From positions 8,773-72,772 of IMG/VR virus record IMGVR_UViG_3300031565_000014: DNA of 64,000 nucleotides, one strand, 5' to 3'. Every line of letters starts with the position of its first letter. Position 1 is the stretch's first letter. The position numbers and the translations under genes are program-made. Under the pieces are notes generated by a model. It saw only the letters and a program-made list of their open reading frames with translations, did no database searches and was not told the origin of the DNA. The DNA is from a virus. This document shows, piece by piece, positions 5,078 to 44,535 of this stretch.

Positions 5078-5694
5078 CAATAGCAGAAGAAAAAAAGCAA
5101 AAAACAGCAGAGCTTCGCAAACTTCATGAAGATTTTCTTGAAATGATGGGGGGTAATGTTAAGTTTTATGGTCACTTAGCTTATAAACCTAAAGAGTTTC
5201 CTGAGTTAGGAGCTTGTATTAGTGTTTTTGAGTCACAAATAAGTGACACTAATGGGTTCTATGTAGAACTTGTTGATAAAGATTTAATACGTAAAGAAAA
5301 TGATAGCGGTAAGTTATATTATTACGCGTATAACCCTCATTTTAAAGAAGAAAACCCTTGTGTAGACAGAGGTAGTTTTAAAACGTATTTTATACCTATA
5401 GACACGCTTAAATTAGCAAACGATAGTGTAGGAGGTAAAACACCGCAGGAAGTGGGTAAAAAGCTTATAAGTACAACAGGAGCTATTAAGACAACATCTA
5501 CAAAATTAAAAGCTCAAGATGTAATTATCGCAGATAAACTCACTGCAAATGATGAATTTAACACAGTACAAAATGATGCACCTTTCACACACTTGACCAT
5601 TAAAGACTTTATGGCAATAACATGGAGAGTTCCTATAAGTGATAAAGATTTTATTAATGATCGTATAAAAAGTTTAAATAGTTATAATGGGTAA
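5074..5694 (+). CDS. Hypothetical protein (206 aa)
   Basis: Translationally coupled ORF within the replication operon. Confidence 0.75.
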   Translation: MTIAEEKKQKTAELRKLHEDFLEMMGGNVKFYGHLAYKPKEFPELGACISVFESQISDTNGFYVELVDKDLIRKENDSGKLYYYAYNPHFKEENPCVDRGSFKTYFIPIDTLKLANDSVGGKTPQEVGKKLISTTGAIKTTSTKLKAQDVIIADKLTANDEFNTVQNDAPFTHLTIKDFMAITWRVPISDKDFINDRIKSLNSYNG

Positions 5695-6394
5695 ACGAGT
5701 GTTAATTATTGCCGAGTCAGGTTCCGGCAAGTCGCATAGTATGCAATTTTTAGAACCTAAAGAAACATTTATTATTAACATAGCAAGTAAAGATCTACCT
5801 TTCAAAGGTTGGAAAACAAAGTATCCTGAGTGGACACCTAAATTCCAAGAAGGTAGACTATTTAATTCACAAGTTGATAATGGTAAATTTGTCGCTAAAA
5901 ATGTACTAGATTGTTTAGATTATATTAATACTAGCAGACCTGAGATTAAAAATGTTATTATTGATGATTATCAGTATATTTCAGCATTTGAATTTTTTCA
6001 TAGATCAGATGAGAAGGGATATGAAAAATTTTCTGATATAGGTAATAATATTATGAAAACTGCTGAAAAACCGATGTATTTGAGAAATGATCTTATGGTA
6101 TTTTACCTAACTCACTCTGAAGAAATCACGGATTCAACAGGTAGAAGTAAGCAAAAAGCTAAAACAATAGGTAGATTAGTAGATGATAAGCTTACTCTTG
6201 AAGGTTTATTTCCTATAGTATTATACGGAAAAAAAAGAGACAATTTAGAAAAAAATATTGTAGAATTTGGTTTTGACACCAAAGCTAACACAAAGAATAC
6301 GTGTAAATCACCTGAAGGAATGTTTGAGAGTGAATTTATACCTAATAACTTACAGTTAGTTAGAGAGGCAATATTAAATTATGAAAAAGACTAA
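5687..6394 (+). CDS. AAA_24/Sak4-like P-loop ATPase (recombination/annealing)
   Basis: Walker A AESGSGKS, Walker B VIIDD, LTH, KSP.GMF..IPN C-terminal motif. Confidence 0.8.
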   Translation: MGKRVLIIAESGSGKSHSMQFLEPKETFIINIASKDLPFKGWKTKYPEWTPKFQEGRLFNSQVDNGKFVAKNVLDCLDYINTSRPEIKNVIIDDYQYISAFEFFHRSDEKGYEKFSDIGNNIMKTAEKPMYLRNDLMVFYLTHSEEITDSTGRSKQKAKTIGRLVDDKLTLEGLFPIVLYGKKRDNLEKNIVEFGFDTKANTKNTCKSPEGMFESEFIPNNLQLVREAILNYEKD

Positions 6395-8152: not shown

Positions 8153-8581
8153 ATGATAAAAGTATTTATTCCAGGAAATGTACCATCATTAAAAAACAGT
8201 AAAGTAAAAACTAGTAGAGGAATATTCCCAAGTAAAACAGTTAGCAAATATTTAGCTAAACAAGGTGTTAAATCTTATAGTGTTAGTAAAAAAACAGTAG
8301 AAGACTATAAAACACGAGATAATGAATTCAGAAAGACTTCAACACCTCTTAAACAAGTAATAGAAAAAGATAAACCTAATGTTGTTTATTTTCATTTTGT
8401 AAGAGATAGTAAAAGAAGATTTGATTTTCATAACGCAGTACAAATTATAGCAGATTTGTTAGTAGCTCACGATATCATAGAAGATGATGATATGACCTGC
8501 TTTATACCAATGCCTAAACAAAAAGATGGTTTATGGTATAGTTTAGATAAAGATAATCCTGGTGTTTGGATTTATGTATAA
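8153..8581 (+). CDS. RusA-like Holliday junction resolvase
   Basis: IPGNVPSLKNS, RRFDFHN...ADLL...IEDDD, PGVWI motifs. Confidence 0.75.
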   Translation: MIKVFIPGNVPSLKNSKVKTSRGIFPSKTVSKYLAKQGVKSYSVSKKTVEDYKTRDNEFRKTSTPLKQVIEKDKPNVVYFHFVRDSKRRFDFHNAVQIIADLLVAHDIIEDDDMTCFIPMPKQKDGLWYSLDKDNPGVWIYV

Positions 8582-13117: not shown

Positions 13118-14222
13118 AACAACAAATTTTTTCGATATAGTAAAAGAAAGAAATAATTTAATTTATGATGATACAACGAATGAATATTCTTTAAAGCCTA
13201 CTAAAGGAATATTACGTAGTAGTTATAGAAATTATTTAAGTGAGTATGGTACTATACCTACTAGTGAATATAAAATTAATAATGGTGATAAATTATACTT
13301 TTATAAAGGTTGTAATATTTTAAGAGACAAAATTAGAAGCTACTCTGCGGCTAATGGAGATTGTTTAAGTATTACTATTAAATCTGAAACAGCAGATGCT
13401 TATTTTGTTGGTGATGACACTATTAATTATCTTTTAGAAAAAACAGCAAGTAGTTATGAAATTTACAAAAAAGAGTTAATTAACACATTGCGTTTAATTG
13501 ATAATACAGAAAAAGTAATAAATGATTTAAACAATGCTAATGATGAATCTATAATGATGAGTTATCATATAATTGGTCAATTAAAAGAATCATTAAAATC
13601 ACAGAAAAAAGAAAATCATGATTTTAATTACAGCTATGCTTATTACAGTTCTATAAGGTACACAGATTTATATAATGAACTTAAGAGTCATTATGATAAT
13701 GGTGGGATTTTTTATGATGATAAAAGTTTGCTTAAAATATTAAACAATGAGCTAAGTGTTCTTGATGAAAATAATTTTGAGCAAATAGAATTAATGCTAA
13801 TGTCTACAGATGAAAATAATGTAAAATTAGCTGCTGAGATGATGGCTAATTCTGATCCTATTAAATCAGCTTATGAACTAGCTTATTTTTTATGTAATTA
13901 TGATAATAAATTACGTTATTCTGGAATGTGGAATTCTGTTAATTTTAAATCTTTAAGAAATTGTTTTGATCAAGAATTTCAATACAGTCAAACACTTGAT
14001 GTAATAAATTATTGTACTGAACGTCATCTTATTGGTGATCATAACATTAATTTAATTAAAAAACATATTAAAAAAGAATTTGACAGTAAGTTAGACTTTA
14101 GACTTAAAAACTTAATAGTTATTGACAAAATTTCTTTGGGTAAACCTGTTATAAGTTCTATTAAGTCCAACAGATCTAAAATTAACAAAACAGAAGATTT
14201 GGAGGTGCTTGATGCTGAGTAA
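13110..14222 (+). CDS. Hypothetical protein with BRCT-like segment
   Basis: GDKLYFYKGCNILRDKIR...SITIKSETADAYFV; C-terminal LMSTDENNVKLAAEMMAN helical region. Confidence 0.55.
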   Translation: MTKTTNFFDIVKERNNLIYDDTTNEYSLKPTKGILRSSYRNYLSEYGTIPTSEYKINNGDKLYFYKGCNILRDKIRSYSAANGDCLSITIKSETADAYFVGDDTINYLLEKTASSYEIYKKELINTLRLIDNTEKVINDLNNANDESIMMSYHIIGQLKESLKSQKKENHDFNYSYAYYSSIRYTDLYNELKSHYDNGGIFYDDKSLLKILNNELSVLDENNFEQIELMLMSTDENNVKLAAEMMANSDPIKSAYELAYFLCNYDNKLRYSGMWNSVNFKSLRNCFDQEFQYSQTLDVINYCTERHLIGDHNINLIKKHIKKEFDSKLDFRLKNLIVIDKISLGKPVISSIKSNRSKINKTEDLEVLDAE

Positions 14223-15204
14223 CAAATCTAAAGAAGATGATTTTTATAAAAAGGAGTTTAGTTTTAGCTATAGTAGCATTAGTAAATTACTATATTCACC
14301 TGTTTTATTTTATGATCATTACATTTTACGTGAAAGAGAAGATAGAGACTACAGTCACCTAATCGGAGGAAGGCTGATACATTGTCTATTATTAGAACCT
14401 GATGTGTTTAACACTAAGTATGCTGTTTCTAACAGTAAAATCCCAACAAAAACATTAAAACCTTTACTTGACAGTATAGCTTACAAAAATATTAATGATA
14501 ACAATAATCTTGAAGATCATAAAGATGACATTTTATTATACCTTAGTGGTATAAATCTTTACCAATCACTCAAAGATGATGCAGGAAGACTTGAAAAAGT
14601 TATTACAGCTGCTAATATTGAGTACTTTGAACATAAGAAATCTACAATAGGTAAAGAGATTATTGATCAAGACTTACTTACTAAATGTGAAGAGGCTGTA
14701 AAAATAATTAAATCAAATAAAAGTGTTCGTAAACTTTTACACTTAGATGGTGTAAACTTATTTACAAATAATGTAGAAGTACATAATGAGCGTGAATTAA
14801 GTTGTAAATTAAAAGGTTATGATTTTGGTTTAAGAGGTGTGCTAGATAATTATACAATTGACCACACTAATAAAATTATAACTATTAATGATTTTAAGAC
14901 AACAGGTAAGGGAATATTAGAATTTCCGGAAAGCGTTGAATATTATAAATACTGGCTACAAGCATCCTTATACAAAAAATTATTATATAATAACTTAAAC
15001 GAATCTATGAAAAATTGGAAGTTTATGTTTAATTTTATAGTAATAGACAAGTATAATCAGGTGTATCCTTTTCCTGTTAGCGATAACTCTTTAGGAAAAT
15101 GGGAAGAAGAAACAAATAGTGTTTTAGAAAAAGTGAACTACCATTACTCGAATAAAAATTATTCTTTACCATATGAGTTAGCTACAGAAGGTGTAATCCT
15201 TTAA
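14209..15204 (+). CDS. PD-(D/E)xK exonuclease (RecE/ExoVIII, DUF3799-like)
   Basis: FSYSSI, GRLIHCLLLEP, RGVLD...INDFKTT, YWLQASLY. Confidence 0.85.
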   Translation: MMLSNKSKEDDFYKKEFSFSYSSISKLLYSPVLFYDHYILREREDRDYSHLIGGRLIHCLLLEPDVFNTKYAVSNSKIPTKTLKPLLDSIAYKNINDNNNLEDHKDDILLYLSGINLYQSLKDDAGRLEKVITAANIEYFEHKKSTIGKEIIDQDLLTKCEEAVKIIKSNKSVRKLLHLDGVNLFTNNVEVHNERELSCKLKGYDFGLRGVLDNYTIDHTNKIITINDFKTTGKGILEFPESVEYYKYWLQASLYKKLLYNNLNESMKNWKFMFNFIVIDKYNQVYPFPVSDNSLGKWEEETNSVLEKVNYHYSNKNYSLPYELATEGVIL

Positions 15205-26600: not shown

Positions 26601-26784
26601 GATTATCCCAGTCCCCGTACCATGACTTAAAAGAATTAGTATGAACTTGTGCATAAAATGCAAAAGCTTCATCATTAGATACCCCTAAACTTTTAAATTT
26701 TTCAAATAATAAACTAGGTTCCCCGTTTTTAGCATTAACACCTGTTAAATTACCCTGATTATCTCTAACTAAAGTACAACTCAT
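20674..26784 (-). CDS. Giant virion cargo/ejection polyvalent protein (2036 aa): N-terminal ART-like domain plus zincin metallopeptidase motif
   Basis: FKSWYGDW...FFHGT..FDKFD...GMFFS...PVFLK...VIFNPNNI; FHEFSH; coupled (TAATG) to the RNAP gene. Confidence 0.7.
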   Translation of the reverse strand: MSCTLVRDNQGNLTGVNAKNGEPSLLFEKFKSLGVSNDEAFAFYAQVHTNSFKSWYGDWDNQPGLASKYLDVNGEPILFFHGTNGTFDKFDPSKKRYNAHDIENGMFFSQEYSHAKKYGVNVIPVFLKAQTIDRTEPTPEMLAKPSQLSALRKYESNIINTTKADSVELHTNDKEGIGIKQNVIFNPNNILIVSKSSETTSKKSPLKQQVESSDPLVDADRIISEIESISTMESISNSFEVESQNSLEIVRAVADRLSEKLGVPYSVVSATQAYQITKNAKNPYNGQPAFYYNGVVHFVEGQMNMSTVFHEFSHPFVTALRNENKPLYDKLIAELASTEKGARLLKESAEEYNSDINDPAVTDEALVKSLEESLLDNNTPEFTSLIKKIIYNIRQMLRRVFGKNVTVSKLGLNTSVKDLAKILKSKYVRIEPIEITKADYVAYKRMSIDESNKLAEDLAKNLDNSDVLQMLDAFYTHTSSQLRELKKNKDIKGLNELLATVYGDNPLQKMASVLGKYETITHNNYDEIRSKVESTEALTHERTKAIVSSLEETKTMLEAMVPRLFDLTKQATIELSDLQLAMATYQTIKSYETFVTSVNEILTEQGFPNNSGIMDLLGVIQGKLKSVDSHIKKIQQKGVSSVIIDQSKSLRDELINDRKERIKELKNESANSKVNRDSEIKKLENEIKTIENHAKKIADILANKSKDSNMLSWLTSPMNSQDPLISGYAKLIKLSKSDAALKTQREQNQILEELAPLLEKVRTNRHFDRVDQIGQAITYEATKLFRNEAGELEERKVYAFLDKYKDHKTGLEKLKYEAFQARTKWQETNEESAYREYLDARAALEQHKLNFFQQPYVKEFYAPKKVLLETTETIDGVIYNIGKDAFIKRSEILEKIQEYTDRSEKEEDPSEKQKELDLINVLWKEYRRLYSTVDEYGNKKTGVALAEAKALIKYRNSNNVFYKYTEKEGAFQTALQEYEKFLETSYDLSTDEGKEEYARLREHWISKNTRKSPNDQYFEDLNREYNELSKLFEQAGIKDPKNLEELREIIQGIKTSNKDKNGEVKASEMNDTLITKVKDVDQKILDLRDNIPGISGLTPAESREYSILNSYEEEDLTEENISRLEELNTKKEDNPVPLSIRKAIGKVFKNISNITTREASTDYIDIMNTWIHDIDNGEHLKSTLKTASLSKANADKFLSENIYRYYINQSEEFKEFFERSHISKKIVKDEEIEGISYKNEVTAYLRTSIWSNNVPNNSKYLSNIKILDESGNTIETIPGQPIFEFFTREVKENYKNKRIVGETVDVWGNWLPKAAEDMDTSLEGWDRYINKDYEKMKQSDPDMFRILEILRKAHYKAQEGLEDSAKLGNEIARFRKDKTETLQTKDFTKNELENLKLKLKTVGKQFTAMFKAQKDDIEEAGLNLDDIDPNDLSDVEDVGMFLNLAEQMNPSRSLVIKGTFNIGLDITSLDVIQSTLKYMNSANEQKELIKINPVAQSLVSLVDELNAKESSEISGKKSKRAWGLFNKKGETTRAKVIKALTEREFYGQNVAGWGANNPGLIKALNTMISETSRSYLGLNFPSDIKNRFSQTYHNFINGIAGVDVSPTAMIKGKAFGWQLMTEISKQRYKVGAKSYNFQLLEVFDFMEDRFSSKLGEYATSSATRDVINLTWMTSFRKLMEQEGAFELFGALLINQKVEQTQEDGSISKIELKDAYEIKDGQIQLKDNIVDKEWAIGGRKFNEYKIKMQTILEGTAGTYSKFSQPLVDRNLGWKAFISLRKFAYSMYRRRLNGASVDPEISNYWKALGSTAVTGERKAGGTFDLAYGDMHTGYYAEALVGLAVLYNGLRNGQVNSLTKEEKSALKAVTAELAVIGLLTASMFLLGYDDDDKDRFKKVRNLSGPLPLPWVSDDPNRPSFNMGGWMHAHVIYQLMLVKSENEAFSPSLSGISQMLSFKDNTSVIFGPTVDKLFTLTQDLVRWGIGDERAYYKKDIGPFAWQKAESFKFYNHLLQSFYFRGKAVDPGKGIRDQATFDNLR

Positions 26785-29700
26785 TATTTTTTACAATTAT
26801 TTAAACTATCCATAGCATCCTGTATTTCATTCTGTATACCTTTTTGAATAACTTCATCAGATATTTCTCTTGGTAGAATATTAGGCATGACCTCTTTAGT
26901 TTCATTAGAGGGGTCATTAGATAATCTAAAGTTTTCTGCAAGTTGCTCATTAAGGTATTTATATGTTTTAGGAGCACTATTTTTCAAAGATACTCCATAA
27001 TTTTCAAAAAATGACACAGGATTACCTTTTTCTGTTAATTCTTTTAAGTCACTTACGATATTATCAATTAATGTTTTGTTATAATCAAAATTTTCTTCAC
27101 CTAAAGATTCTCCCATATTTTTAATATGCATCGGGTAAGTATTATTAAAACTAGTAGCTTCTTCTGTTACAAATGTAGTACTTTGGTTGTTTTTAATAAT
27201 TTGTTCGTCTGTTACTTTATCAACCTCAGTAGCTTGTTGTTTTGGTTTATTGACAAAATCTTTAAATCCTTCTATATCTTGTCTTCCTGTAGCATTAACA
27301 TACTCTTGAAACTTTTCTTGAGCTTCTTGTTTTTGTTGTGGGGTTATTTCTTGACTTAAACTTGTACTTGTAAGTTGAGGAGGTGATACTTCTGTTCTTT
27401 GTTTAATTTCATAATAAGCTTCCTTAATACTTTCAACTTTTCTAGCATTTTGATCTAAAGCTGATATAGAGCTTCCTCTTTCAAAAGAAGATACAACCAT
27501 AGATTTAAAAGCCATTGCTCTTGATAAATTTTTTATATTTTCATCAAGTTTTTCTGGTGTAAGATTTTTATACCAGTCAATAATGCTACCTTCTTCATCT
27601 GCTAATAAATTATTTGCAAACCAAAGGTCACTACCAGCACCTGTAAATGATCCAATAATACCAGAAATAAAACTATCCCAGTTTGTATATTTTTCTTTAT
27701 CTTCTTTATTTAATTCTGGATATTTTTCTTTATTAAAATCAAAATAAGGTTTTCCATATTGTGAAGTATAAAACTTTATATTGTTATAGTACGCCCAATT
27801 ACTTAATAATGCTTTTTCATCATCAGGTAAAGACTTTAATATTTCTTTCCAATATTTTTCTTTAATAGAGCGAGGTATATTTCTTGCTATATCTTTAGAT
27901 ATAGCTTCTTTTAATTCTCCTTTATTTTTAGGATAGCCATCTTTTCCTTGTAAAAAAAAGAAATTATCCATTGAAGAAGTTTGTAATTTTTTACCCCAAA
28001 GAGAACCCTTAAATACATCTACTTCATAACCAGTTATTGTAGATAAATCTACTGTAGCATTATCCATTGCCTTTGCTACAAGTTCTACCATATCATCAAT
28101 ATATTCCTCTTTGGTAGGAAAATATTTACTTAATCTAATAACAGCTTCATTGGATCCACTTATATCAAAATCTTTACTTTTTAATATTCCAATGGTTATT
28201 AAAGCTTTACCATTAGCATAGACTTCCTCAACTTCTTCGTTTTTAAATTTTCTTCCTTCTCTCTCAAAATCTAAGTGAGCTTTTTCATGTTCAACTAAAA
28301 ATCTAACAAGTTGTTCTTTGGAACCATTGACTAGCCTATCATAAACATTTAAGTTTTTAAGAACAGTATTAAGAATAGGAAGTTGGTTATCTAAAACTTC
28401 TTTGTTAGAGTATTTATCTAATAATTCTTTGTTGATATAAACTTGTCCATCAACTACACCTGCAAATATTTCTTTACCTTGTGTATTATATATTTTTCCT
28501 ATTTTATAATCTAAAACACTAGGAAGATTAGATTTAAACCCAGCAGCTTCATATACTTCATTAGCTAATTCAGGAGTAGATTCAAATAGTTCTGCTTTAG
28601 GTACAGAATTCTCAACCTCTTCAGTAAAATCTGGTCTTACTATCTGAAATGCATTTTCTACAGCTAAAGGTACTACAGTATAGTTATTGTTATCTTCTAC
28701 TAGTGTTGTAGGTATACTTTCAACTTCTGCTGTACTTAAAGCTTCAAGAGCTCTTTGATTAATTACAGATTCATAATGGCCTAACGTAGATCCTGGAAAT
28801 TCATTATCAAAATCTTTTCTTGTGTATAAAGTATGTTGATATTCATGCTCTATTACAAAATTTTGCCATTCTTCATAAGTTGTAAAAGTATCTGGGGCTA
28901 GAGCATCTGCTTTAGAATTTATTTTTTCACCATGAATAGTCTCAAATAAGTTTCTAGGACTAGTCCAAGCTTTTTTACTAAAACCCTCTAGTAAAAGTTC
29001 TTTATCTAATAATATAACTCCTTCACTATATTTAGCAGCAATTCTAGTATTTTGTTTACTTCTAATATTGTTAGAGTATTTCACTGGAACACCTTTATAT
29101 GCTGATATTTCTATTACGTTAATTTGTGAAATATGATCATCTTTTTCATTAGGAACAGTGTAATCTTGTATTTTATATCTTATCTTGTTATCAACACGAT
29201 TAACTTTATTAAATTTAGCTGTGTAACTATTTAATATCTTAGTAGTAACTTTAACATCATTAATTTGATTACTTAACATTTGTACAAAATCTCCTTGAGG
29301 CATGTATCTCAAAATAGAATTCATACTTTTAGTATTATGACCTGATTGTAAAAAAGCATACATAGGTAATTTTGTGAAAAAATCTCTAACAAAAATATCT
29401 TTATGGTTTTGAAGTTCTTTAATATTTTCACTAACTCTTTCAACTAATTCACCTTTTGGTTTAGAAGTTATAGGTCCTATATTTTTTACATCACTATTTA
29501 AAGTAGGTAACTCTTTAAATTGTGTAAATACAGCATATTCTTCTGCTAACTCAGGATACATTTTTGTTATTCTTAAAAACTGATCAGCAACAGTATTTGT
29601 TTTAGATGAAAATAAACTATTAATATTAAAGATATTACTTAACGCCATATCTCTAATTATTCTCTCATATGTTAATAAGTTAATTTTATTTTCAATATTA

Positions 29701-32700
29701 TCTCCTGGTAGTAAATGTAAAAAATTATTATCTGCCTCTTCAGGAGAATTTTTATATTCTTCAAACATAGGTGTACCCATAACTTCATTTATAGGCATAG
29801 AATGTCTTAAATATTCTCTTTCTATTACAAAATTCTCATATTCTTGCTCGCTATTCTTACCTTCATGAGTAAAAGTAAATAAAGGTACAGGAGCTAACCC
29901 AAGTTTAAAATATTCAGATGCATTTGTAAAGTCTTTTCTTTTATATTGTTCTCTAATTTTATCCTTAGAAATATATAAAACTTTGTCAAGCACAGCAGCA
30001 CCATATTTTAAATTAGATATTTCTTTTTTAGTTAAACTTGTTTTAGTAGCTAAACTTTTATAAAAATCTTTAGATCTAGATTCTAATAAACTATTTTGTA
30101 ATAAATATTTAATTAAATTATTTCTGTAAGCTTCTACATATTTTGCTTGATTACCTTTACCAAAAGTTTCTCTAAGCGTTGTTTGAAACCCAGGATCAGA
30201 CGTAATAGACTTTATTTTATCATTTAAAGTTTTGTCATTTCTAAGAATTAACACTTGAGACCATAAATCTGATTGAAAGTCAGATATATTAAAAGTACCA
30301 ATAGGCGAACCTTCTAATAAACTATCTACAAATTCTTCAGCGTAGATTTTTCCTGTTCTTAAAGAAGGTATGTTTGCTTCTTTTTGGTGTATATCATATA
30401 ATGTTCTAGATACAGTTGTATCATAGTTCATATGTAACTTAAGTTGTGTTAAATCTTCTGCTATATTTTGTAATTCAATAAAATGTAGAAAAGCCCCAAA
30501 TGCGTCTTTTTTATCTTTTTCAGATAAACTTTCAACATTTATAGATACTAATGAAGAAGTTTTAATAGCATTTTCACCTATTAGCTCTTTACGTCTATCT
30601 TGTATTTGTTTTAAAAACTCAGTGTCATATGCTGGATTTTTAAGTTTTTCTGTTTTAAAGTTATCACTATCGTATTTTTTAAGTATATCATTTAATGCTT
30701 TAATTTTAGGATTACCTTGAGTAAAATTAGATCCTTCATGCGCTTCAACAAATAAAGATTCATAATAGTTTTGAGACTCTACGTATTCTTTTACATAAGG
30801 GTTAGAAACAAAATCAGCCGCTTTATCAAAAGGTACACCAGCCATAACTAACATAACTAATGTAGGTTCTACTTTCTTATTACCTTGTACATTAAAAATC
30901 CAAGCATCCTTTTCTATATCTACCCAACCATTAATTAATAAGTTAAGTATATAAAAAATATCTTCTCCTTCTGTATCTTTTAATCTAGATAAATCTATTC
31001 CTCCGTTTTTAGCAACGTTATGTGGTAACAATAAATTGAGAGCAATATCACTTTGCGTTTTAATAATTTCACCATCTTTATCTTTAGTATCTAACATCAT
31101 ATAAGGATTAAGGTGGAACCCTATTCTATTAAACTCAGATTTAAAAGTTAAATCAATAGCTGCTTGACCTAAAGTGGCCATTCCTTCATTATTTTTACGA
31201 TGCTTATCTAAATTATAACTGGAGAGCAATATCTGAAATGCATGTATTCCTTTTTTAGCGTGATCTTGGTCTATTAAACTTTGAGAGGAGTTATAGCTCA
31301 TAAATTTACCTAATTCATTAGCCTTATTTTTAACAGTATCACCATCAATAGAGGTAATTAAATTTGCAAAATTATCAGGTTTAAGTAGTATATCAGTTAA
31401 AACATCTACTAAACTTGTTTGGATAGCTGCTGCTGAAGAATTAGCTAGATTAAGTTTAACTTTATTAATTTCTTCTTTAGTATTTGCTATATCTTCTTTT
31501 ATTTTTTGAGTCTTTTCAGTAGCGTCAAGTTCAAATAATTCATTTCTATCACTAAGTAGATTAGTAATATGGTCATTAAGTTTTTCTATATTATTTTCTA
31601 CATAGGCTATTTCGTCATTAACATTTTCTGTAACACTTCTAAGTTTTAATAACTCAAGCTCTTCTTTAGCTAATTTAACTTTACTGTTAAGATCACTTAT
31701 TGATTCTTTAAACTCATTATATATTTCAGATTTAGCTGCAATTACTTCAGGAGTAACTTCATTGTATAATGTTTCGTATAATTCTTTTTGCTTTTCTATT
31801 AACTCACTTAAATTATTTTTAAGAGATTGTGTACTATCTTTTATACTTTTATCATATTTATATTTATGTGTTTTACCGTCTAAGTTCATTAAACTTGGCA
31901 TCATTATAAACATTTTGTCAACGTCAAAATCTGAACCTGTTTTAGCTACTATTTCTGATGGTGCTATAATAATATTACCTGCATGTGTTGGTAAGAACTC
32001 AGCTATCTCCATTACATCCATAGAATTAAGACCTTGAGTTGGTATCCTTACGCCCACCATAGTAAGGATCTCTTTATTTTCAGAGATCCATTCTTTGTCT
32101 TCAATTAAAAGATTTAAAGCTTTAAGTGTAGATATATTTTCATCTTTTGCTTTCTTAAGAACATCAGCTCTAAGTAGTAAGTGCTTAAATTTACCTTGCA
32201 TTGAAATTTTTACCTGCATAGCTTTAGTTCCCGTTTTGGGATCATAGCTATAAAATTTAAGACCGTTAGTACCGTATTCTTCTTTTTCTGCCTTAGTAGC
32301 ATTTCTAGGCATGTCATTGTCAGTTAAAATACTAGATGACGCTTGAATAAGAGGTTCTCCTGCTACTTTAGGCTTAACTATACGCTTATTAGCTAAAGAT
32401 ACTAAAGCTGTTTCTATTTTCTCAGCAGAAGGTGAAAAAGATAAATCTACTTTTAAATTTCCATTTTTATCTACCTGTATAAATTCTAGCTCATTGTCTC
32501 CTAAGTCTCTTTCAGATAATTCAGTCTGTATAGCATTAGTAAGATTTTCTAAACCCTTTTTAGAAAATGTTTTAACACCATCTTCATTTGTAGTATACTC
32601 TAAACCTAATTCTTCTATTAAATCTTCTTTATTTTTAGCAACTAATGCATCAAGTAAACTTTGATATTTTTCTGCAAGAACTTTATTTTCTTCAGAGGTA

Positions 32701-35700: not shown

Positions 35701-38700
35701 TTGTTATTATATTTATCTAATAAACTATTATAAGCATTAGCATAAGCGTTATTTCTTATTGCACTACTTTTGAAAAACTGAGTAGTAAACTTATTAGTGT
35801 CGTTCATCTTATTTTTTAAGTCAAGATATTCAGACATCATAGAGTCAAACATTGACATTACTTGTTTAGTTTCATCTTTACTAAGATTAATATTAGCACT
35901 TGATGGTGCTATTATTTTACCTTTGTTGAGTTTACCAAACATCATGTTACTAACACTAGCATTATATTCGTTTAAATTACCAACTCTAAGTTTATCATAA
36001 AGTTCTTTAACAGAATTTTGTGTGTTAATGGTGCTATAGTCTATTGCTTTAGTCCCTTTAAAAAAGTTTTTTAAGAAGTTTAAAATTCTTTTAAATATAT
36101 TATTAGTTGCAGTTCTACCTTTAAAGACTTTAGTACCATCTGATAACATGTAAGATCTAAAATCTTCAGCTAAGAATTCTTCTATTTCTAAATAACTAGC
36201 ATCTTTAAATTTAACTTGTTGTCCATTATGATTAGTAAAACTACCGGATAACTTACTTACTTCATTGTATAATTTAGTTTTATCTCCAACAGTTAAAAAT
36301 AATTGAGAAAAAGCATGCCATGATTCATGATATAAATCTGTAAAATTACTTCCATTAAATAATGTTATTCCAGCAGAGCTAAATGTAGCGTATGCGTCAG
36401 AATTAACTATATTAAATGCTTGTTTGTAACCTAGTAGTTTATTAATATCTGAAGATTCATACCATTTTTGAGCCTTCTCTATTTGTTCTTTAGTTACACC
36501 TGAGTCTAATTTTTTAGATCTCATTAATTCATCAGGGTCTACTTCCGTCTCTGTAAAAGGGTTAGGTGTAAATTTAGTTTTAGCTTTAACTTCATTAGTT
36601 TGTTGTGTTGGTTTAGATAACTCTCCCCCTTTATATGGAGCAACTCTATTCTTCTTTTTTAATTCCGTTGCTATAAGTTCTAATAATTGTTTTTTCGCAA
36701 CACTCATGGAAGCTCCCATACCTCTAAGCATATCTTCAACACCTTTTTCTCCAGCTTCTTTTAATCTTTTTCTTTCAGCATTAAGTATATCTAATTTCTT
36801 TTTATAATCAGCATATTCAGCAGTTTTACTTAAATCTACTGATATTGGATAGAAAGTTTTACCGTCTACATCATCTATAGACAATTCTATTACTCCATTA
36901 TTATCTTTTCTAATAGTATTTTGGTGTGTATTAAAGACTATGCTTTTTCCTCCTTTTGATATATCAGCTTGTTTATAACTTTTACCATAGCCTGACATGT
37001 CTATTGGAGAATATATTATTTCAACCTCATTAGTTTGTTGTGCTGTCGAAGTCGTTAGAATAGGGCCTGCAGTAGTACCATAAGGAGTTGTCTGGGTCAT
37101 AGTACCCGCAGTCTCATTTATTTCTTTAGTTTCTTCTTGAATAGCTTGATCTGAAGGAGTAAATTTAAAATATGGGTGTTTTCTAAAAATAACCTTTTTA
37201 CCCTTATAATTAAGTGTTTCATTAGTAGTATAAGCGTTTTGAATTATGAAGTCATCATAACTCATTGTTTCCATAGTTATCTCGTTATTTTCTACTTTAA
37301 TAGGAGCACTAATATTTTTCCCTATAAAACTACTTAATATATTAATTCTATTTTTTTGATTTTTAGTTACCCCGTCTACTACTTCCCCATCACCTAAAGG
37401 AGAATTAAAAAAACTATCTTTCAAGTATTCAGGTGTAACATTAATTTCAGCAACATTTTTGCCTTTAACATTAGTGACTAGTCTAATGTTTGTAGGAAGA
37501 ACTTCTTTTGAATTATAGTCGTATTTAAAATATAATTGATCACCAACTAATGTAGTTAATATCTCATGTCTTTCTTTTGCATTAAGTACTTTGTTTTTAC
37601 CTAATTTTCTTGGATTAGAAAGAGCTGGGTTAAAAAGTAATTCTGAAATTATATTTTGTTGAGCTTGTGTAAGTTTATTTTGTCTTACGGTAATATTATC
37701 TTGCTTATTAGGATTAGTTAACGTAATCTGGTAAACACCACGTTTAACTTCTGTAAGAGCATATCCTTGATATGTTTCAGAAAAATCAACATCCTTAAGT
37801 TGTGTTTTACTTTTTTCTCCTAAGTTTACTATAGGAAATCCTTCACTTAAATATTCTATGTCTAGTAAAATAGCTTTACCGGACTCTAAAAGCTTATTTT
37901 GGAGCTCTACAAGCTTGTTATATTCATCTTGTATATATTTAGATGCTTCTTTACTATTTATCTTCTTAGAATGCGCTATTTCTTTTGGCGTTTGTATAGT
38001 AGATGCTCTTTGTCTAACACCATCAACTATTACGTCAAATTCTTTACCTTCTTTTATTTCTTTTTTTAATGAAGTATGTGTCCAGTTACCGTCGGTATCT
38101 TTAACAGGTTTTCTTGTTTTAAAATAAATAGCCTTGTAGCCTTCTTTTTTTTCTTTTGAAATATTGTAGTTTTCATCAAAATATAAAGTATTACCTTCAT
38201 TATCTGTAACTACTACATTTGCTGCTTTATTAAATTCTTCAGGATTCTTTTCTTTAAAGTCTTTATCTTGCTCATAAAGATCATTACTTTTTTCAAGTTC
38301 TTCTGATGTTACCATCTTTAATCTGAAACCTGTATGACCATTATAAGTTAATGTTGTAAAATCAGGATTACCTGGGAATTCAGAACTAAGCTTTCTTAAT
38401 AAACCATAAGCGTAAAATCCTTCACTATTTACATTGCCATATGAAGCTTCCCAAAAGTAAGTAACATTAGGTGTTTCAGGTCTATCAGAAGCTTTAGTAA
38501 CTTCTTTAGGTGGTTCAACTGCTTCAACTCTTTTATTAGTTGGTACAGCTGCATCTATCTTACTTCTATTAACAGCAATTTGTACTGGAGTTAATGTAGA
38601 CTCTAAGTACTCTACTATTTTAGTAGGATCTTGAAATAAAGTAGCTGTTTCACTAATCTCATTAAAGTTATCTTTAAAATAAGATAGAAACTCACTATCA

Positions 38701-38909
38701 TCAACCATTGCTTGAAGAGCATACATAGGCATAATATGTACAGCTTCTAAGGCAAGTTCATGACCTACTTCTTCTGCTAAACTATTATACTGATTTTGTA
38801 ATAAACTCTTTAAGTTTAAGAGTTGATTATTATCAACTAAAGTTTGTAATTCTTTATACACACTAGCGTATACGTATTCTAAAGCTTCATCTCCTAATGC
38901 ACAAATCAT
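26784..38909 (-). CDS. Virion-packaged single-chain two-barrel RNA polymerase (crAss-like) with accessory domains (4041 aa)
   Basis: RIPTQGLNSM...KTGSDFDVDK catalytic loop (~31915-31940), DAQGY, TQMRK, NGWVD..KD motifs; several HExxH modules. Confidence 0.9.
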   Translation of the reverse strand: MICALGDEALEYVYASVYKELQTLVDNNQLLNLKSLLQNQYNSLAEEVGHELALEAVHIMPMYALQAMVDDSEFLSYFKDNFNEISETATLFQDPTKIVEYLESTLTPVQIAVNRSKIDAAVPTNKRVEAVEPPKEVTKASDRPETPNVTYFWEASYGNVNSEGFYAYGLLRKLSSEFPGNPDFTTLTYNGHTGFRLKMVTSEELEKSNDLYEQDKDFKEKNPEEFNKAANVVVTDNEGNTLYFDENYNISKEKKEGYKAIYFKTRKPVKDTDGNWTHTSLKKEIKEGKEFDVIVDGVRQRASTIQTPKEIAHSKKINSKEASKYIQDEYNKLVELQNKLLESGKAILLDIEYLSEGFPIVNLGEKSKTQLKDVDFSETYQGYALTEVKRGVYQITLTNPNKQDNITVRQNKLTQAQQNIISELLFNPALSNPRKLGKNKVLNAKERHEILTTLVGDQLYFKYDYNSKEVLPTNIRLVTNVKGKNVAEINVTPEYLKDSFFNSPLGDGEVVDGVTKNQKNRINILSSFIGKNISAPIKVENNEITMETMSYDDFIIQNAYTTNETLNYKGKKVIFRKHPYFKFTPSDQAIQEETKEINETAGTMTQTTPYGTTAGPILTTSTAQQTNEVEIIYSPIDMSGYGKSYKQADISKGGKSIVFNTHQNTIRKDNNGVIELSIDDVDGKTFYPISVDLSKTAEYADYKKKLDILNAERKRLKEAGEKGVEDMLRGMGASMSVAKKQLLELIATELKKKNRVAPYKGGELSKPTQQTNEVKAKTKFTPNPFTETEVDPDELMRSKKLDSGVTKEQIEKAQKWYESSDINKLLGYKQAFNIVNSDAYATFSSAGITLFNGSNFTDLYHESWHAFSQLFLTVGDKTKLYNEVSKLSGSFTNHNGQQVKFKDASYLEIEEFLAEDFRSYMLSDGTKVFKGRTATNNIFKRILNFLKNFFKGTKAIDYSTINTQNSVKELYDKLRVGNLNEYNASVSNMMFGKLNKGKIIAPSSANINLSKDETKQVMSMFDSMMSEYLDLKNKMNDTNKFTTQFFKSSAIRNNAYANAYNSLLDKYNNKNYPEDATGRTQEIFEQVLNNFKLIADHHLANSIFGNNISSKESKKEKLAENIDEEVADKDLGVELLSKSNVDPSNYRTDIIDYLMSTLPFVDSEGNFRLDRFGVPMLADSFQVSTLLTNLLTDTRGIDAMYEVLDSYAKSTKPYSNIVNILLARLGNTKDINISTAATWFEFHKSFGLNSTPVSVTLNRKHKNDDGIVTHDLIHKHNDAIVDKTVNNLDNAFKTADPSKHMIIKDPRYGNILDLEAIYDKYRKFSPQHGEHKVDFIEGTRIVGFLTDIGFDLSDIGYNSELAKELREATQGKGDSKLNLNFLLRSLVKSHENNLKKKEKAEKEGTDYEPKMYRSLSEIFSDDNKHLKSIAKIIAKNSPTVSVAMVPDASNNPVYTNKTFSTQTVMINLLNSVEHVDQLNGKHQTVDTIEELHHLGPDYAWASASMTKRAMFDTSGKRRKDSSIESKELLGVSNTAESVHENGEKTNKLTQGDKLIENMNYLLLKGASEQMRYGTKSTATAVVIRNVNDSNQDKYLYIDLENFKEANLSIANEQFTAMVIPFIDAEIARMIEFNKKDSPYSNISNSSNFYENGKDFVLFDKILSDETKETIKNYYNISDPSTEIVTLEQSMNSGVLDNSELAAIRDMIYNDLSLFMSKAVDLDMNDFNKMPYISDNLRQKIELRTGAKGHVAKNLAVKAFSYNYVLRNLDMLGLLYGDPAQFNMAKEDFHKRIGAIASGGVQFSNDVSTNEFVNTSVGRPLAESKGFTKSTSWDGKLRTSVIADNNVRSTAYDAMFKTLTEDFGYSKVDTERRLEAYLKMTEGDAQGYMSLDTYRTLSIISGKWDWNKQETLFQKIVNKEDINTDDVVKYFPPRKYQYYGPLANNLDPASNRSISLQAFHKYSLLPLIPGVFGENADKLHDQMMEQGIDYTIFESASKINSVTSNGKPDVIYKDFDNSRELKETLPFTVNEIFLAYLKDQTDVNEKYKGKTTLPTQMRKLVTIGMFDGGDSTSEENKVLAEKYQSLLDALVAKNKEDLIEELGLEYTTNEDGVKTFSKKGLENLTNAIQTELSERDLGDNELEFIQVDKNGNLKVDLSFSPSAEKIETALVSLANKRIVKPKVAGEPLIQASSSILTDNDMPRNATKAEKEEYGTNGLKFYSYDPKTGTKAMQVKISMQGKFKHLLLRADVLKKAKDENISTLKALNLLIEDKEWISENKEILTMVGVRIPTQGLNSMDVMEIAEFLPTHAGNIIIAPSEIVAKTGSDFDVDKMFIMMPSLMNLDGKTHKYKYDKSIKDSTQSLKNNLSELIEKQKELYETLYNEVTPEVIAAKSEIYNEFKESISDLNSKVKLAKEELELLKLRSVTENVNDEIAYVENNIEKLNDHITNLLSDRNELFELDATEKTQKIKEDIANTKEEINKVKLNLANSSAAAIQTSLVDVLTDILLKPDNFANLITSIDGDTVKNKANELGKFMSYNSSQSLIDQDHAKKGIHAFQILLSSYNLDKHRKNNEGMATLGQAAIDLTFKSEFNRIGFHLNPYMMLDTKDKDGEIIKTQSDIALNLLLPHNVAKNGGIDLSRLKDTEGEDIFYILNLLINGWVDIEKDAWIFNVQGNKKVEPTLVMLVMAGVPFDKAADFVSNPYVKEYVESQNYYESLFVEAHEGSNFTQGNPKIKALNDILKKYDSDNFKTEKLKNPAYDTEFLKQIQDRRKELIGENAIKTSSLVSINVESLSEKDKKDAFGAFLHFIELQNIAEDLTQLKLHMNYDTTVSRTLYDIHQKEANIPSLRTGKIYAEEFVDSLLEGSPIGTFNISDFQSDLWSQVLILRNDKTLNDKIKSITSDPGFQTTLRETFGKGNQAKYVEAYRNNLIKYLLQNSLLESRSKDFYKSLATKTSLTKKEISNLKYGAAVLDKVLYISKDKIREQYKRKDFTNASEYFKLGLAPVPLFTFTHEGKNSEQEYENFVIEREYLRHSMPINEVMGTPMFEEYKNSPEEADNNFLHLLPGDNIENKINLLTYERIIRDMALSNIFNINSLFSSKTNTVADQFLRITKMYPELAEEYAVFTQFKELPTLNSDVKNIGPITSKPKGELVERVSENIKELQNHKDIFVRDFFTKLPMYAFLQSGHNTKSMNSILRYMPQGDFVQMLSNQINDVKVTTKILNSYTAKFNKVNRVDNKIRYKIQDYTVPNEKDDHISQINVIEISAYKGVPVKYSNNIRSKQNTRIAAKYSEGVILLDKELLLEGFSKKAWTSPRNLFETIHGEKINSKADALAPDTFTTYEEWQNFVIEHEYQHTLYTRKDFDNEFPGSTLGHYESVINQRALEALSTAEVESIPTTLVEDNNNYTVVPLAVENAFQIVRPDFTEEVENSVPKAELFESTPELANEVYEAAGFKSNLPSVLDYKIGKIYNTQGKEIFAGVVDGQVYINKELLDKYSNKEVLDNQLPILNTVLKNLNVYDRLVNGSKEQLVRFLVEHEKAHLDFEREGRKFKNEEVEEVYANGKALITIGILKSKDFDISGSNEAVIRLSKYFPTKEEYIDDMVELVAKAMDNATVDLSTITGYEVDVFKGSLWGKKLQTSSMDNFFFLQGKDGYPKNKGELKEAISKDIARNIPRSIKEKYWKEILKSLPDDEKALLSNWAYYNNIKFYTSQYGKPYFDFNKEKYPELNKEDKEKYTNWDSFISGIIGSFTGAGSDLWFANNLLADEEGSIIDWYKNLTPEKLDENIKNLSRAMAFKSMVVSSFERGSSISALDQNARKVESIKEAYYEIKQRTEVSPPQLTSTSLSQEITPQQKQEAQEKFQEYVNATGRQDIEGFKDFVNKPKQQATEVDKVTDEQIIKNNQSTTFVTEEATSFNNTYPMHIKNMGESLGEENFDYNKTLIDNIVSDLKELTEKGNPVSFFENYGVSLKNSAPKTYKYLNEQLAENFRLSNDPSNETKEVMPNILPREISDEVIQKGIQNEIQDAMDSLNNCKK
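36588..37042 (-). repeat. 20-bp direct repeats (19/20 identical) flanking an in-frame 435-bp segment
   Basis: aacttcattagtttgttgtg at 36588 and aacctcattagtttgttgtg at 37023; both encode QQTNEV. Confidence 0.8.
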
Positions 38910-41900
38910 TACTTACAATTATTTTTAAGGGCGTTAATAAAACCAGATTTAAAATCTTTAGAATCTTGCTTAATTTTTGCCAAAGCTTTATCTTTATCTA
39001 ATTTTTTAGAATTCACTTGCAAAGTGGCAATCATTGCTTTAACAGAATCTTTACTTAACATAGATTTTTCTTTTTTAACAGCTGTTTTAGTAACAGTGCT
39101 TGTTTTCTTAACTTGCTTAGTTTCACCATCAGCATCTTTTATTGTAGTACTATCTTTATCTTGCTTAACTACTTTTTGTTGTTTACCTTCTACTTCTACA
39201 AAAGATCCTTCGGCTACTTCTCCAACAGGTCCTGGTTTATTTATAGAATTTTTATAATCAGCAATTACTTCATCGACTAAGTTATTTATAAAAATAGTGA
39301 AATTTGCTGTACCTCCCAGTAATTTTTCTAATTTATTTTCTTTACTCTTGAGTAATTTCTCAATTTTTGTGTAAACTTTATCTCTTAAAGCATTATCTTT
39401 TATTGTATGTATAGAAGGAATTTTAGGTATCACATCCTTCATTACATTTTTTACATATTTACTTGTAGAAACAATGTCTGCTTCATCTAAAATTTCATCT
39501 GTAATCTCATTTGTAATTTCTTGAACTATATAAACATGTGACTTTCCTTGTCCTTTAGACCAAGCTTTTAATTGTGGCGTTTCTTCCGTAATTATACTGG
39601 TATTATATACTTCTGTAGAATCTCTATAACCTACATAGGATATTTTAAATAATTTATTACCATGTTTAAATATTTTAGTCTGAGCTACACCAATACCTTT
39701 AATTTTATCTGTATAAGATTTAATAACAAAACCTGTATCTTTAAGTGAAGCTAATGCTTCTGTTTCTTGCTCGTTTAGTGGACTTTCTTCAAGATCTATT
39801 GCAATATTAGGGTCTATTCCAGTTGGTATTTTTTGACCTTTAGCTGGAATTATACTATCATCTTCAACTTTCTTTTTAACAGTTTCTTTATCTACATAAC
39901 CTTTTACAGCTTTTTTAAGTAAAGATGTTATTGGTGATCTTTTTAGTTTAATTAATCCGGGAACACCATCAACAGTACTTTCTGGAGTAACTTGTTCAAA
40001 TCCTTCAGCAGATGTAACATTTACTGTATCACCATCCATTTCATAATTAGAAACTAAAGTAAAGATGTTAATACTACTTGATTCTATTCCTTCAGAAGAT
40101 CTTAGTAAATCCTCATATATTGTTTGTTGGTCAGACCATCCTTTAACTCTAGGTTCAAATTCACCTTCGTTAAATATGTATTTAGCTGCTGTAGTTTGAT
40201 TCCCTGCTTTAAGTGTTTTAAAATCTATAATAGCTATTGTACCATCTGGAGCAACAGCTACTAAATCTAAAGTACCACCAACACCGTCAAGACCTGTAGC
40301 TTTCTTTTCAGCGTCTGTAAATTCCATATAAGTAAATACATCATTAGCTACAAATTTATAACCTTGTTTTTCTAGATTATCTTTAAGTGTAAAGAAAGCA
40401 TCTACCATTATCTCAAATTGCTCTTGCTCTATGTTTACTTTAAATCTACTAGATTTAGCATTCATCTCATTAGCTGTTTCTAGATAATTTTCTCTGTTTG
40501 CTTTAACTTCTTCTTTTGTTTTACCGTCAAATATATCTCTACCAACTATATCAGCTAAGTTACCTCTAGCAGCTCCTTGAGCCATATTGTCATTAGATTC
40601 AGTTGTTGTGCCATTTACTCTATCTTTAAAATTAGACTGTCTTTCTAATTTAAGTTTACCATCTGTATAAATAGATGTTTGTGACTTACTTCCACCATCT
40701 TGTTGTGTTGATTTTAGTTCTGCTTTTAATTCTGTAGCTTTTTTCCAAGCTTCTAATAGTTTAAAAAATTCAGCTTTATTATTTCTCCAAACAGCTTTTA
40801 TAAGAGTAGTGCCTTGCATTTTCATATATTCAGAAACAGATTGTTCATCTATTCCCCAATCTTCTACAATATTTTGAATATCTGATAATAAAAGATTTTC
40901 TTTTCCGTTTCTATCTAAATTAGTATTTGAAAATTCATCTATTGTTTTTGATATTTCCTCACTTTCAAGAAAAATCATTTCTCTATCTATAAGTGCTTCT
41001 AGTTCAACTTTTTTAGCTTCAGTTTCATTAGATTGTTGTGTTGGTTTAGAAATAGTTGTTGTAACTGTTTTAAAGTTTTTATTCTTCTCTTGTAACGCAG
41101 ATAGCTTATCTAAAGTTTCTTGTTGCTTATCTACTTTAACGGCTTCCTCGTCAACTACTTCTTTAACTTTAGCTTTTTCAGCATCTTCTTTAGCTTGAGT
41201 TTCACCTAGTATTTTATATTTAGATTTAAGATTCTGTATAACTTTAGGATTTTTTTCAAATAAGATATCTACATCACCATAAGCTTCTTGTTCATCTTTG
41301 TCTAATGCTGTAAAGGCATCAACTATTTCATTAAAGAAATCTATAGATAAATCATTACCCCCTTCTGATTGAGGAAATATAAAAGTAGCATATTTAAATA
41401 TATTAGGATATTTCTCTTGATCAATTGCGTCCTCTATTTTACCTTCACCCTCTTCTTTAGTAATCTCTTCTTGAATAGGTTTAAGTATACCTTTAGCAAG
41501 ATATTGTATTACTTCCGCAACAACTGTTGGGTTTTGAACAGGCTTTAATGTGTGAGCATCAAAAATTTCATTAGGAAATCTTTGTTCACTTTCTTCATCA
41601 AATATTTTAGCAAGATCTTCTGGTAATAAAAATACACCAAATTTATCTAGAAGTTCGTTGGCTAACTTATTCATTTCCTCTGACGTATAATGAGTCTCAA
41701 GAACTTCTTTTAAATAATCTTTACGATTAGCCCATTTATCTCTATAAGATTGTTCTAATGCTGTAAAGTGATTCATGAAACCTTTAGGATCTGCTAATAC
41801 ATTAATAGATTTAGATAAATTGTTACCATCTTCTCTTAAAGCATAAAGATCTTTATATTTAACAAACATTTCATCAAAGTTTGTTGCATCAAATATTTCT

Positions 41901-44530: not shown

Positions 44531-44535
44531 ATATT

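Follow-up and report, generated by a model that had tools for sequence, protein, structure and literature searches.

The stretch of DNA analyzed here, which we call the window, is made up of 64,000 nucleotides (nt), bases 8773-72772 of one 72,772-bp virus record (IMGVR_UViG_3300031565_000014), and has a G+C content of about 29%. Two adjacent giant genes lie on its minus strand, P0001 (26784..38909, 4041 amino acids (aa)) and P0002 (38909..44530, 1873 aa), and both carry copies of a short DNA repeat encoding variants of the peptide KPTQQT[S/N]EV. There are three copies in P0001, and one full and one half copy in P0002, all of them on the minus strand and in frame. In each gene a pair of copies encloses a block of coding sequence, cassette 1 in P0001 and cassette 2 in P0002. 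An earlier note on this DNA had proposed that the repeat marks sites where domains can be inserted, swapped or deleted in frame, and we have followed this proposal in related phages and in public sequencing runs.

Cassette 1 (36618..37022, about 135-139 aa, EIIYSPIDMSGYGKS...PYKGGEL) lies between copies A and B. Copy A, the upstream boundary (37023..37043), is found at aa 624 of P0001 within STAQQTNEV, of which AQQTNEV is spelled GCA CAA CAA ACT AAT GAG GTT. Copy B, the downstream boundary (36588..36617), is at aa 769 and reads SKPTQQTNEV (TCT AAA CCA ACA CAA CAA ACT AAT GAA GTT). The direct repeats 36588-36607 (aacttcattagtttgttgtg) and 37023-37042 (aacctcattagtttgttgtg) match at 19/20 positions and are 435 bp (145 codons) apart, so that the coordinates given for this block by the earlier note hold. 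In P0002, cassette 2 (40715..41020, about 102-106 aa) is bounded upstream by copy C (41021..41050, aa 1165, SKPTQQSNET) and downstream by half copy D (40700..40714, KSTQQ = AAA TCA ACA CAA CAA), which is devoid of the 3' half of the motif; the same KSTQQ spelling opens a full copy in locus L039. Here it is the 11-mer TTGTTGTGTTG, at 40700 and 41033, that bounds a 333-bp (111-codon) block, again as previously described. This 11-mer appears three times in the whole window (36600, 40700 and 41033), always within a motif copy, indicating that KSTQQ at 40700 is a true half copy. The remaining copy, E (27222..27248, aa 3891, KPKQQATEV within NKPKQQATEV), had been missed by the earlier note, whose other copies proved real. 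Copy E precedes the last 142 aa of P0001, which end in a Cys tail, and the same arrangement, with the motif ahead of a C-terminal module, is found in related phages.

The resemblance between the two genes is restricted to the repeat. Positions 41024-41050 match 36591-36617 at 26/27 nt, and these are the only two matches of the 27-mer in the window when up to three mismatches are allowed; the mean number of matches in 100 dinucleotide shuffles was 0.00 and none of the 100 reached two. In a repeat search the largest direct-repeat family of the two-gene region had four copies (27212, 36578, 37013 and 41011), two of which, 36578 and 41011, are 90% alike across 40 nt. When P0001 and P0002 were compared by BLASTP only the motif stretch aligned (30 aa, E 0.13), and since nothing else matched, the genes appear otherwise unrelated, as had been claimed. 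Over the eight residues shared by copies B and C the chance that all codons are identical is 0.011, a modest excess of conservation at the DNA level within the window alone.

The same DNA was found, in frame and with the same codons, in giant open frames of 35 AT-rich viral contigs. The consensus is AAA CCA ACA CAA CAA ACT AGT/AAT GAG GTT (27 nt), that is KPTQQT[S/N]EV. Using a pattern open to all the synonymous codons of KPTQQTxEV, 15 viral loci matched, one of which (64% G+C) was discarded as a chance match. In the other 14, with a G+C content of 28-34%, the motif belongs to giant open frames and has 8 distinct flank contexts. Codons CCA, ACA, CAA, CAA, ACT and GTT were present in 14/14 of them, and AAA and the rarer GAG in 13/14, the exceptions being one AAG and one GAA. 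Given the peptide and the codon usage of these genes, such a codon set is expected by chance with a probability of about 0.001 per copy. The exact 18-nt core occurred 42 times in 37 viral loci, and 40 of these copies were read as QQT[SN]EV within open frames of 300-4607 aa; the two alternative frames are closed by stops within 3-46 aa. In five whole records we found in-phase arrays of one to three copies at no more than two mismatches and none for a reversed control pattern; looser matching gave two to four in-frame copies in each giant gene, spaced by multiples of 3. Among 596 Gb of cellular genomes there were 25 matches to the core, in assorted frames and G+C contents and none within an open frame larger than 497 aa, which is about the chance level. 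A chance origin of the repeat is ruled out by the shuffles and this cellular control. Besides, when the window was compared with the fetched loci, 93 of the 109 short BLAST matches fell on motif copies A, B and C, so that the motif stands out as an island where the nucleotides are identical, in phages with giant proteins that can be aligned over short patches only (26-50% identity). In P0009, P0050 and P0051, which are relatives without the motif, the same cassettes lie between short direct repeats of another sequence. LSNKSV flanks the cassette on either side in P0009, TTTDT is the repeat of P0050, and P0051 has KPKVEAP/KPVETP; each lineage may have its own linker word.

Comparison with relatives shows that the enclosed blocks are cassettes. 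We collected 44 homologs of P0001 aa 450-1150, none of them above 50% identity over the conserved part. The region containing a HExxH motif is shared by 43 of them, and cassette 1 is in 0/43; the remaining homolog, P0009, shares the cassette only, at 72% identity over 137 aa (aa 1647-1782), located behind a NADAR domain. In P0001 the HExxH itself (HESWH, zincin-like, aa 861-865, 36315..36329) belongs to a conserved region about 25 aa after copy B. Across the homologs this region starts anywhere between aa 554 and aa 2278, which makes the position just ahead of it a general hot spot of insertion. Cassette 1 was recovered by an exhaustive search of 1.84 billion representatives in four more proteins of 332-4526 aa (P0063-P0066) at 61-71% identity, placed at aa 1328, 114, 1590 and 1958. 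It is accompanied there by variants of the motif (GQTSEV...SKPTQQTSEV, STQQTGEV...SKPT, KPQTSDI...SQPTQQSSDT and SQPTQESGGL...SQPTQQTSEE).

In P0031 the stretch preceding the junction is the same as in the window (ETAGTMTQTT.YGTTAGP.LTTS, 91% over 22 aa). After it come one copy of the motif and a cassette of some 200 aa that differs from that of the window, and then KPTQQTSEV, which leads into the HExxH region. The cassette that P0031 carries at the same hot spot is similar to an inter-motif module of loci L054/L065 (37.6% over 213 aa). In the window this T/G/P-rich stretch (ETAGTMTQTTPYGTTAGPILTTS, 37044-37118, P0001 aa 598-623) adjoins copy A upstream; the other parts that align with P0031 are about 33% identical. 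The motif peptide was present in only 5/44 of the P0001 homologs. Domains found in P0001 relatives were ART-PolyVal, 2OG-Fe(II) oxygenase (2OG-FeII_Oxy_2), NADAR, cpYpsA, zeta-toxin/AAA_33 kinase and DUF7831. Cassette 1 itself matched no Pfam family at E<=10 and gave no usable ESM Atlas match, and the AlphaFold model of its region, made with an alignment of two sequences, was unusable (predicted local distance difference test, pLDDT, 45.5).

The block of cassette 2 was detected in 6/13 P0002 relatives at 65-77% identity and at six different positions, with flanks that were unrelated or at most 26-28% identical. It was modeled as an all-helical domain of six helices with a pLDDT of 78.6. The six-helix domain has low-confidence segments on both sides, and the copy C residues have pLDDT <50. 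The model had no fold match in PDB at E<=0.001 and cassette 2 no usable ESM Atlas match. A Pfam search over both cassettes at E<=10 gave two chance-level DUF matches only, and by the same search neither of them encodes recognizable splicing or endonuclease domains.

The breakpoints themselves could be located to the base in some pairs of phages. Two contigs of about 70.7 kb, L027 and L028, are 99.94% identical over 9,895 nt. Their giant gene is 100% identical up to codon 1584, where a 2-nt difference appears inside a motif copy; the next 16 nt are common (CAAGCTAGTGAGGTTG) and from there on the two sequences are unrelated. A second case is the DUF7831 domain, which occupies aa 1172-1315 in one giant protein and aa 3272-3415, between motif copies at aa 3271 and 3408, in another that is otherwise unrelated. 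The nucleotide homology between these two genes starts at ACTAATGAGGTT, within the 3' half of a motif copy, and extends to ...AGTGAGGTTGA, where the following copy ends. Together with P0031 and P0063-P0066, these cases provide the different cargo between the same junctions that the earlier note had proposed to look for in relatives. Considering the 44 unique sites, there were 36 upstream and 36 downstream flank clusters, and 4 clusters on each side had several partners (up to 4 each). The C-terminal module EYPVDTN..., for example, was joined via the motif to four different upstream modules. We also analyzed homology blocks (>=90% identity, >=300 nt) for their internal ends among the fetched loci; 50/76 ends were within 30 nt of a motif copy, when 1.27 were expected from the motif density. 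After merging the ends that share 40-mers, 6/16 were near a motif copy.

If the motif were kept for its peptide, the differences between copies should be mostly synonymous. We found the opposite. In the 18 copies that were not fetched by means of the exact core, codon differences were 3 synonymous and 22 nonsynonymous. Within the 3' half (ACT AGT GAG GTT) 3/17 differences were synonymous, and about 22% is reckoned for random single-base changes. A synonymous share no higher than random indicates that there is no purifying selection on the peptide. By codon position the differences were 7, 18 and 3 at positions 1, 2 and 3, numbers that reflect partly 3-nt slips in the CAA/ACA-rich 5' half; the argument uses the synonymous and nonsynonymous count and the 3' half only. 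At loci ascertained by the C-terminal module, the canonical motif was directly upstream in 12/17 and an unrelated linker (DPILDTELSPDEFAPLV) in 5/17, and the peptide is therefore dispensable at that position. The module itself is 86-100% identical in nucleotides in this sample, so that a motif identity of 20-21/21 is unremarkable there and the argument rests on the contexts with unrelated flanks. Overall, the repeat is conserved as DNA and not only as a peptide, contrary to the outcome that the earlier note had named as speaking against its own reading. The most invariant bases of the motif were TAGTGAGGTT. Its -1 frame reads TAG TGA in the AGT version or TAA TGA in the AAT version, adjoining GAGG (for example at 36588-36599 and 37023-37034).

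Nine public runs hold part of the stretch, and contigs of four of them were compared with positions 26700-44600. In run X5 a 568-nt contig with a depth of about 5 agrees with 36077-36586 at 507/510 positions; beyond 36586 it has 33 other letters and then a short match at 37118. The translation reads ...EETKEI-TSEVKEDVPVKE-AKTKFTPNPF... The allele is in phase and lacks aa 598-775, and with them copies A and B, cassette 1 and the T/G/P-rich stretch; 12 residues, among them TSEV, take their place. Its downstream breakpoint coincides with the edge of copy B. The contig belongs to a closely related strain and can be read as a cassette-free allele, with an upstream breakpoint that is weak, as explained below. 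The runs also gave joints from 28593 to 36584 or 37022, with sides of no more than 30 nt, that come probably from other motif-bearing phages and are a hint only.

We think it likely that the repeat is an in-frame linker between domains through whose copies homologous exchange has swapped, inserted and deleted domains. This reading of the copies as recombination junctions is supported mainly by the evidence from other genomes. In the scheme that we propose, a 27-nt linker would be common to the giant virion-protein genes of an AT-rich phage clade that encodes a DFDxD polymerase-like protein, and its copies would lie in one frame within unstructured segments between folded domains. Since they share one phase and are outside the folds, exchange between any two copies would produce an open and correctly phased chimera. 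The exchanging copies could belong to the same gene, to two different genes or to two phages that co-infect a cell. Each exchange would copy the linker too, which might maintain its homogeneity without selection at the peptide level. As for the enzymes, the phage Sak4-like annealase with an exonuclease, or the host RecA, would be the candidates, with the RusA-like resolvase also in the recombination set. Annealases of the Sak4 type recombine short, divergent DNA and generate mosaicism, according to two papers (PMC5499656, PMC8093625). The domains shuffled in this way might be payloads delivered with the DNA. The proposal of the earlier note that the repeat marks sites of in-frame insertion, swap and deletion has thus held, and its description of the cassettes as effectors found no family or fold match; effector or other host-directed functions are conceivable for them. 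The motif may have been selected as a handle, or may simply be a shared linker at which recombinants survive.

Several observations weigh against homologous exchange at the linker. No exchange is seen in the lineage of the window itself; within the 90% clusters to which P0001 and P0002 belong, the members are uninformative, with only 1-3 residues of difference, all away from the motifs, and the near-identical strains in these clusters carry the same blocks. Precise skips of 435 bp (36588-37023) or 333 bp (40700-41033), which the earlier note had anticipated, were absent among the joints listed from four runs, the best 15 of 52 and all from contigs, so that the absence of such deletions is not established. 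The upstream rejoin of the X5 allele is weak (about 25 nt at depth 5) and its TSEV is spelled with other codons, ACT TCA GAA GTT. In L027 and L028 the identity is not resumed in the roughly 10 kb beyond the junction, and a simple cassette replacement is not shown there. The motif itself served to fetch most of the loci. Motif density is allowed for in the expected counts given above, but this is no random sample. For efficient homologous recombination, 18-27 nt are a short length, and the site is tied to no enzyme. Degenerate copies tend to keep [TSA][SNT]EV, and the motif is always in phase and falls in low-confidence segments of the one usable model, that of cassette 2, and a role at the peptide level alongside the one at the DNA level is possible. 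Finally, every related sequence is a metagenome assembly, in which chimeric joins at a shared repeat are conceivable. Such assembly chimeras are unlikely, given that the junction types recur in contigs from 2-5 different samples and that L027 and L028 switch to the left of the 2-nt difference, where the motif sequence in common amounts to only about 9 nt.

Other explanations must be considered for the same data. The motif could be mainly a protein element, either a flexible linker or a cleavage site at which the HExxH domain, in cis, or a head-maturation protease divides the giant proteins into their domains. In that case the breakpoints would coincide only because the chimeras able to fold are those joined in linkers, and the DNA identity would reflect recent common descent. 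The in-frame position of the motif between domains, in segments of pLDDT <50 flanking a compact helical domain, would fit. The end of the motif, x-E followed by V, resembles sites of head proteases cleaving after Glu; besides, the invariant HExxH region follows the insertion hot spot in 43/43 aligned homologs. The tendency of degenerate copies to preserve [TSA][SNT]EV, and the TSEV that the X5 allele spells with different codons, point in the same direction. Metallopeptidase domains of polyvalent proteins are predicted to release other domains by autoproteolysis, as stated in the paper that describes them (PMC5512222). A protein element does not account, however, for the use of the same codons in 8/8 contexts bar two third-position changes, when about 0.001 per copy is expected, nor for the 22 nonsynonymous against 3 synonymous differences between copies. 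The unrelated linker in 5/17 loci with the same C-terminal module, the peptide missing from all but 5/44 P0001 homologs, and the nucleotide identity of the motif between phages with proteins 26-50% identical in short aligning regions, are equally difficult to reconcile with it. We consider this explanation possible, though not probable. If the 27-mer were instead a programmed recombination site, similar to an integron inside open reading frames (ORFs) and targeted or favored by a phage function such as the HNH nuclease or the Sak4-like annealase plus exonuclease, co-infecting phages would trade in-phase cassettes of delivered giant proteins at high frequency, and that traffic would keep the site identical across far-diverged phages. 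We regard such a site as unlikely.

It would be very surprising if the cassettes were autonomous site-specific mobile DNA of the integron, homing or transposon kind, with the repeats being a duplicated attachment or target site recognized by a dedicated enzyme. Single cassettes do lie between direct repeats, at the same site everywhere, the window has an HNH endonuclease gene, and the motif-free relatives have the same cassettes between direct repeats of their own. Against this, neither the cassettes nor the 34 window ORFs examined with PHROGs, which lie within bases 8773-72772 of the record, showed an integrase, a transposase or a homing enzyme. The cassettes are plain protein domains such as DUF7831, the arrays of 2-4 copies hold different cargo, and multi-kb gene ends are exchanged at a single copy, as fits general homologous exchange. 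Most improbable of all appears to be a signal in the RNA or in translation, for example a frame check or a stop and restart by means of the -1-frame stops next to the Shine-Dalgarno-like GAGG. It would explain that the most invariant bases are TAGTGAGGTT, and that two -1-frame stops are present in both the S (AGT) and the N (AAT) versions. Actually, one of the stops is lost in several copies (GGG for GAG three times and ACT for AGT twice), no start codon is located at a fixed distance and nothing ties such a signal to domain boundaries. Homologous exchange at a shared in-frame linker is the explanation that we favor over all of these.

The 72.8-kb record has no terminal repeat, and proteins identical to P0001 or P0002 are also found on contigs of 77-119 kb, indicating that the record is probably a fragment of a larger genome. 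The plus-strand half carries replication and recombination genes (DnaB-like helicase, primase, DNA polymerase, Sak4-like annealase, RusA-like resolvase, exonuclease VIII-like protein and HNH endonuclease). Specifically, the Sak4-like single-strand annealing protein is encoded at 5687..6394 on the plus strand (phrog_2872, E 7e-56), the RusA-like Holliday junction resolvase at 8153..8581, plus strand (phrog_1682, E 4e-8), and the exonuclease VIII-like protein at 14212..15204, plus strand (phrog_412, E 3e-23); the HNH endonuclease gene was located at 9132-10433 by the PHROG scan of the window ORFs. In the minus-strand half, giant ORFs of 2036, 4041, 1873, 1152, 800, 1531 and 1675 aa follow one another, and the virion structural PHROG matches corresponded to the 1675-aa protein and two smaller neighbors (319 aa and 228 aa). 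The 2036-aa neighbor of P0001 (20674-26784) has an ART-PolyVal ADP-ribosyltransferase domain at aa 71-157 (E 1e-11) and neither a motif copy nor a Cys tail.

P0001 and P0002 gave no match in Pfam (0 families at E<=0.01), PHROG or NCBIfam. P0001 had 0 matches at E<=1 to all PDB chains (phmmer), no solved chain was matched by sequence by P0002, and no peptidase family model matched the HExxH region of P0001. The 36000-42000 region of the window had no blastn match among 50,697 phage records, and in a pattern search with P0001 aa 401-1100, 0/45 pattern matches were confirmed as related loci. The homolog alignment of P0001 has HExxH in 43/43 and DFDxD (DFD[IVY]D) in 42/43 sequences; the latter, DFDVD in P0001 (aa 2327-2331, 31917..31931, minus strand), is a candidate RNA-polymerase metal-binding motif. 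The label of RNA polymerase gene that P0001 had received is a reasonable one, based on this motif and on the context, and the same motif together with the neighboring virion genes suggests that the protein may be injected with the genome.

The two giant proteins close with a Cys tail, ...NNCKK in P0001 (window 26787-26810) and ...NNCK in P0002 (38912-38935). A Cys within the last 10 residues or so was present in 57/58 listed relatives, the exception being P0049, on a 6-kb contig, and the tail is also in P0063-P0066 and in none of the other giant ORFs of the window. Motif copies are confined to genes with the Cys tail, which may be a packaging or anchoring signal. P0001 carries besides two tandem small modules, each with a HExxH (EHEYQH and EHEKAH). 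The first one (window 28737-28975, approximately aa 3312-3391) is 72% identical over 242 nt to an inter-motif module of L028, and the second is preceded by ANEV, a degenerate motif. In the N-terminal part of P0002 the segment 44287-44323 has a 37-nt match (94.6%) to L055, outside the motif copies, and many contigs from all four runs pile up near 44285, in what looks like a second short island of conservation.

Giant phage proteins are known to be mosaic, and how whole domains move in phase has been left undescribed. What the data show here is the junction at the level of the base, one short DNA word in one frame, across unrelated genes and distant phages. The literature that could be searched held no report of QQTSEV, QQTNEV, KPTQQT or PTQQTSEV, nor of comparable shuffling of domains by linkers. 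The word provides a rule to split proteins of 2,000-4,000 aa into domains, and the 18-27-mer could serve as a marker for this phage group and its cassette pool in metagenomes. It also offers a case, open to testing, in which recombination and not the coding meaning keeps a sequence. Should the cassettes have host-directed functions, the site would be a means of repertoire turnover.

There are similarities with several known systems. According to a preprint, every crAss-like phage codes for a virion-packaged DFDxD RNA polymerase (bioRxiv 10.1101/2020.03.07.982082). Their enzyme (phi14:2 gp66) resembles P0001 in being a very large DFDxD protein encoded beside giant virion genes; the difference is that P0001 (4041 aa) has no sequence match to solved chains, its assignment resting on motif and context. 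The polyvalent proteins that phages and conjugative elements encode (Iyer et al., 2017, PMC5512222) are giant multidomain proteins too, with variable enzymatic domains and a HExxH peptidase-like region, and they are predicted to be packaged and delivered with the DNA. The likeness extends here to the domains of the relatives and to the ART-PolyVal domain of the 2036-aa neighbor; P0001 and P0002 match no polyvalent-protein domain model. The main text of that paper deals with architectures and autoproteolysis, and within this text there is no mention of linkers or shuffling and no mechanism of mosaicism at the DNA level. Integron cassettes are likewise arrays of exchangeable units bounded by a recurring site. 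Here, in contrast, there is no integrase or structured attC-like site, and the units are in-frame domains of one polypeptide and not genes. In the modular theory of lambdoid phages, short conserved sequences at module boundaries were proposed as sites of homologous exchange between mosaic phages. Those boundaries are between genes, whereas ours are found within ORFs, are in phase and act on protein domains.

Among the systems described, the nearest is the exchange of modules in the adhesin and tail-fiber genes of T-even phages. In gp37 and gp38 the variable segments are set apart by conserved motifs, and exchange takes place in these motifs or close to them, as reported by Trojet et al. (PMC3157838). 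As in our phages, short conserved motifs stand between variable segments in one ORF of an essential virion gene. The glycine-rich motifs of the T-even phages are structural parts of the adhesin fold and their cargo consists of short receptor-binding loops. Here the linker is outside the folds, and what it carries are whole domains (100-280 aa) or gene ends of several kb. Moreover, in these uncultured phages, known from metagenomic contigs, the differences between copies show no constraint at the amino-acid level, and the same DNA is found in two unrelated genes of one genome and in distant phages.

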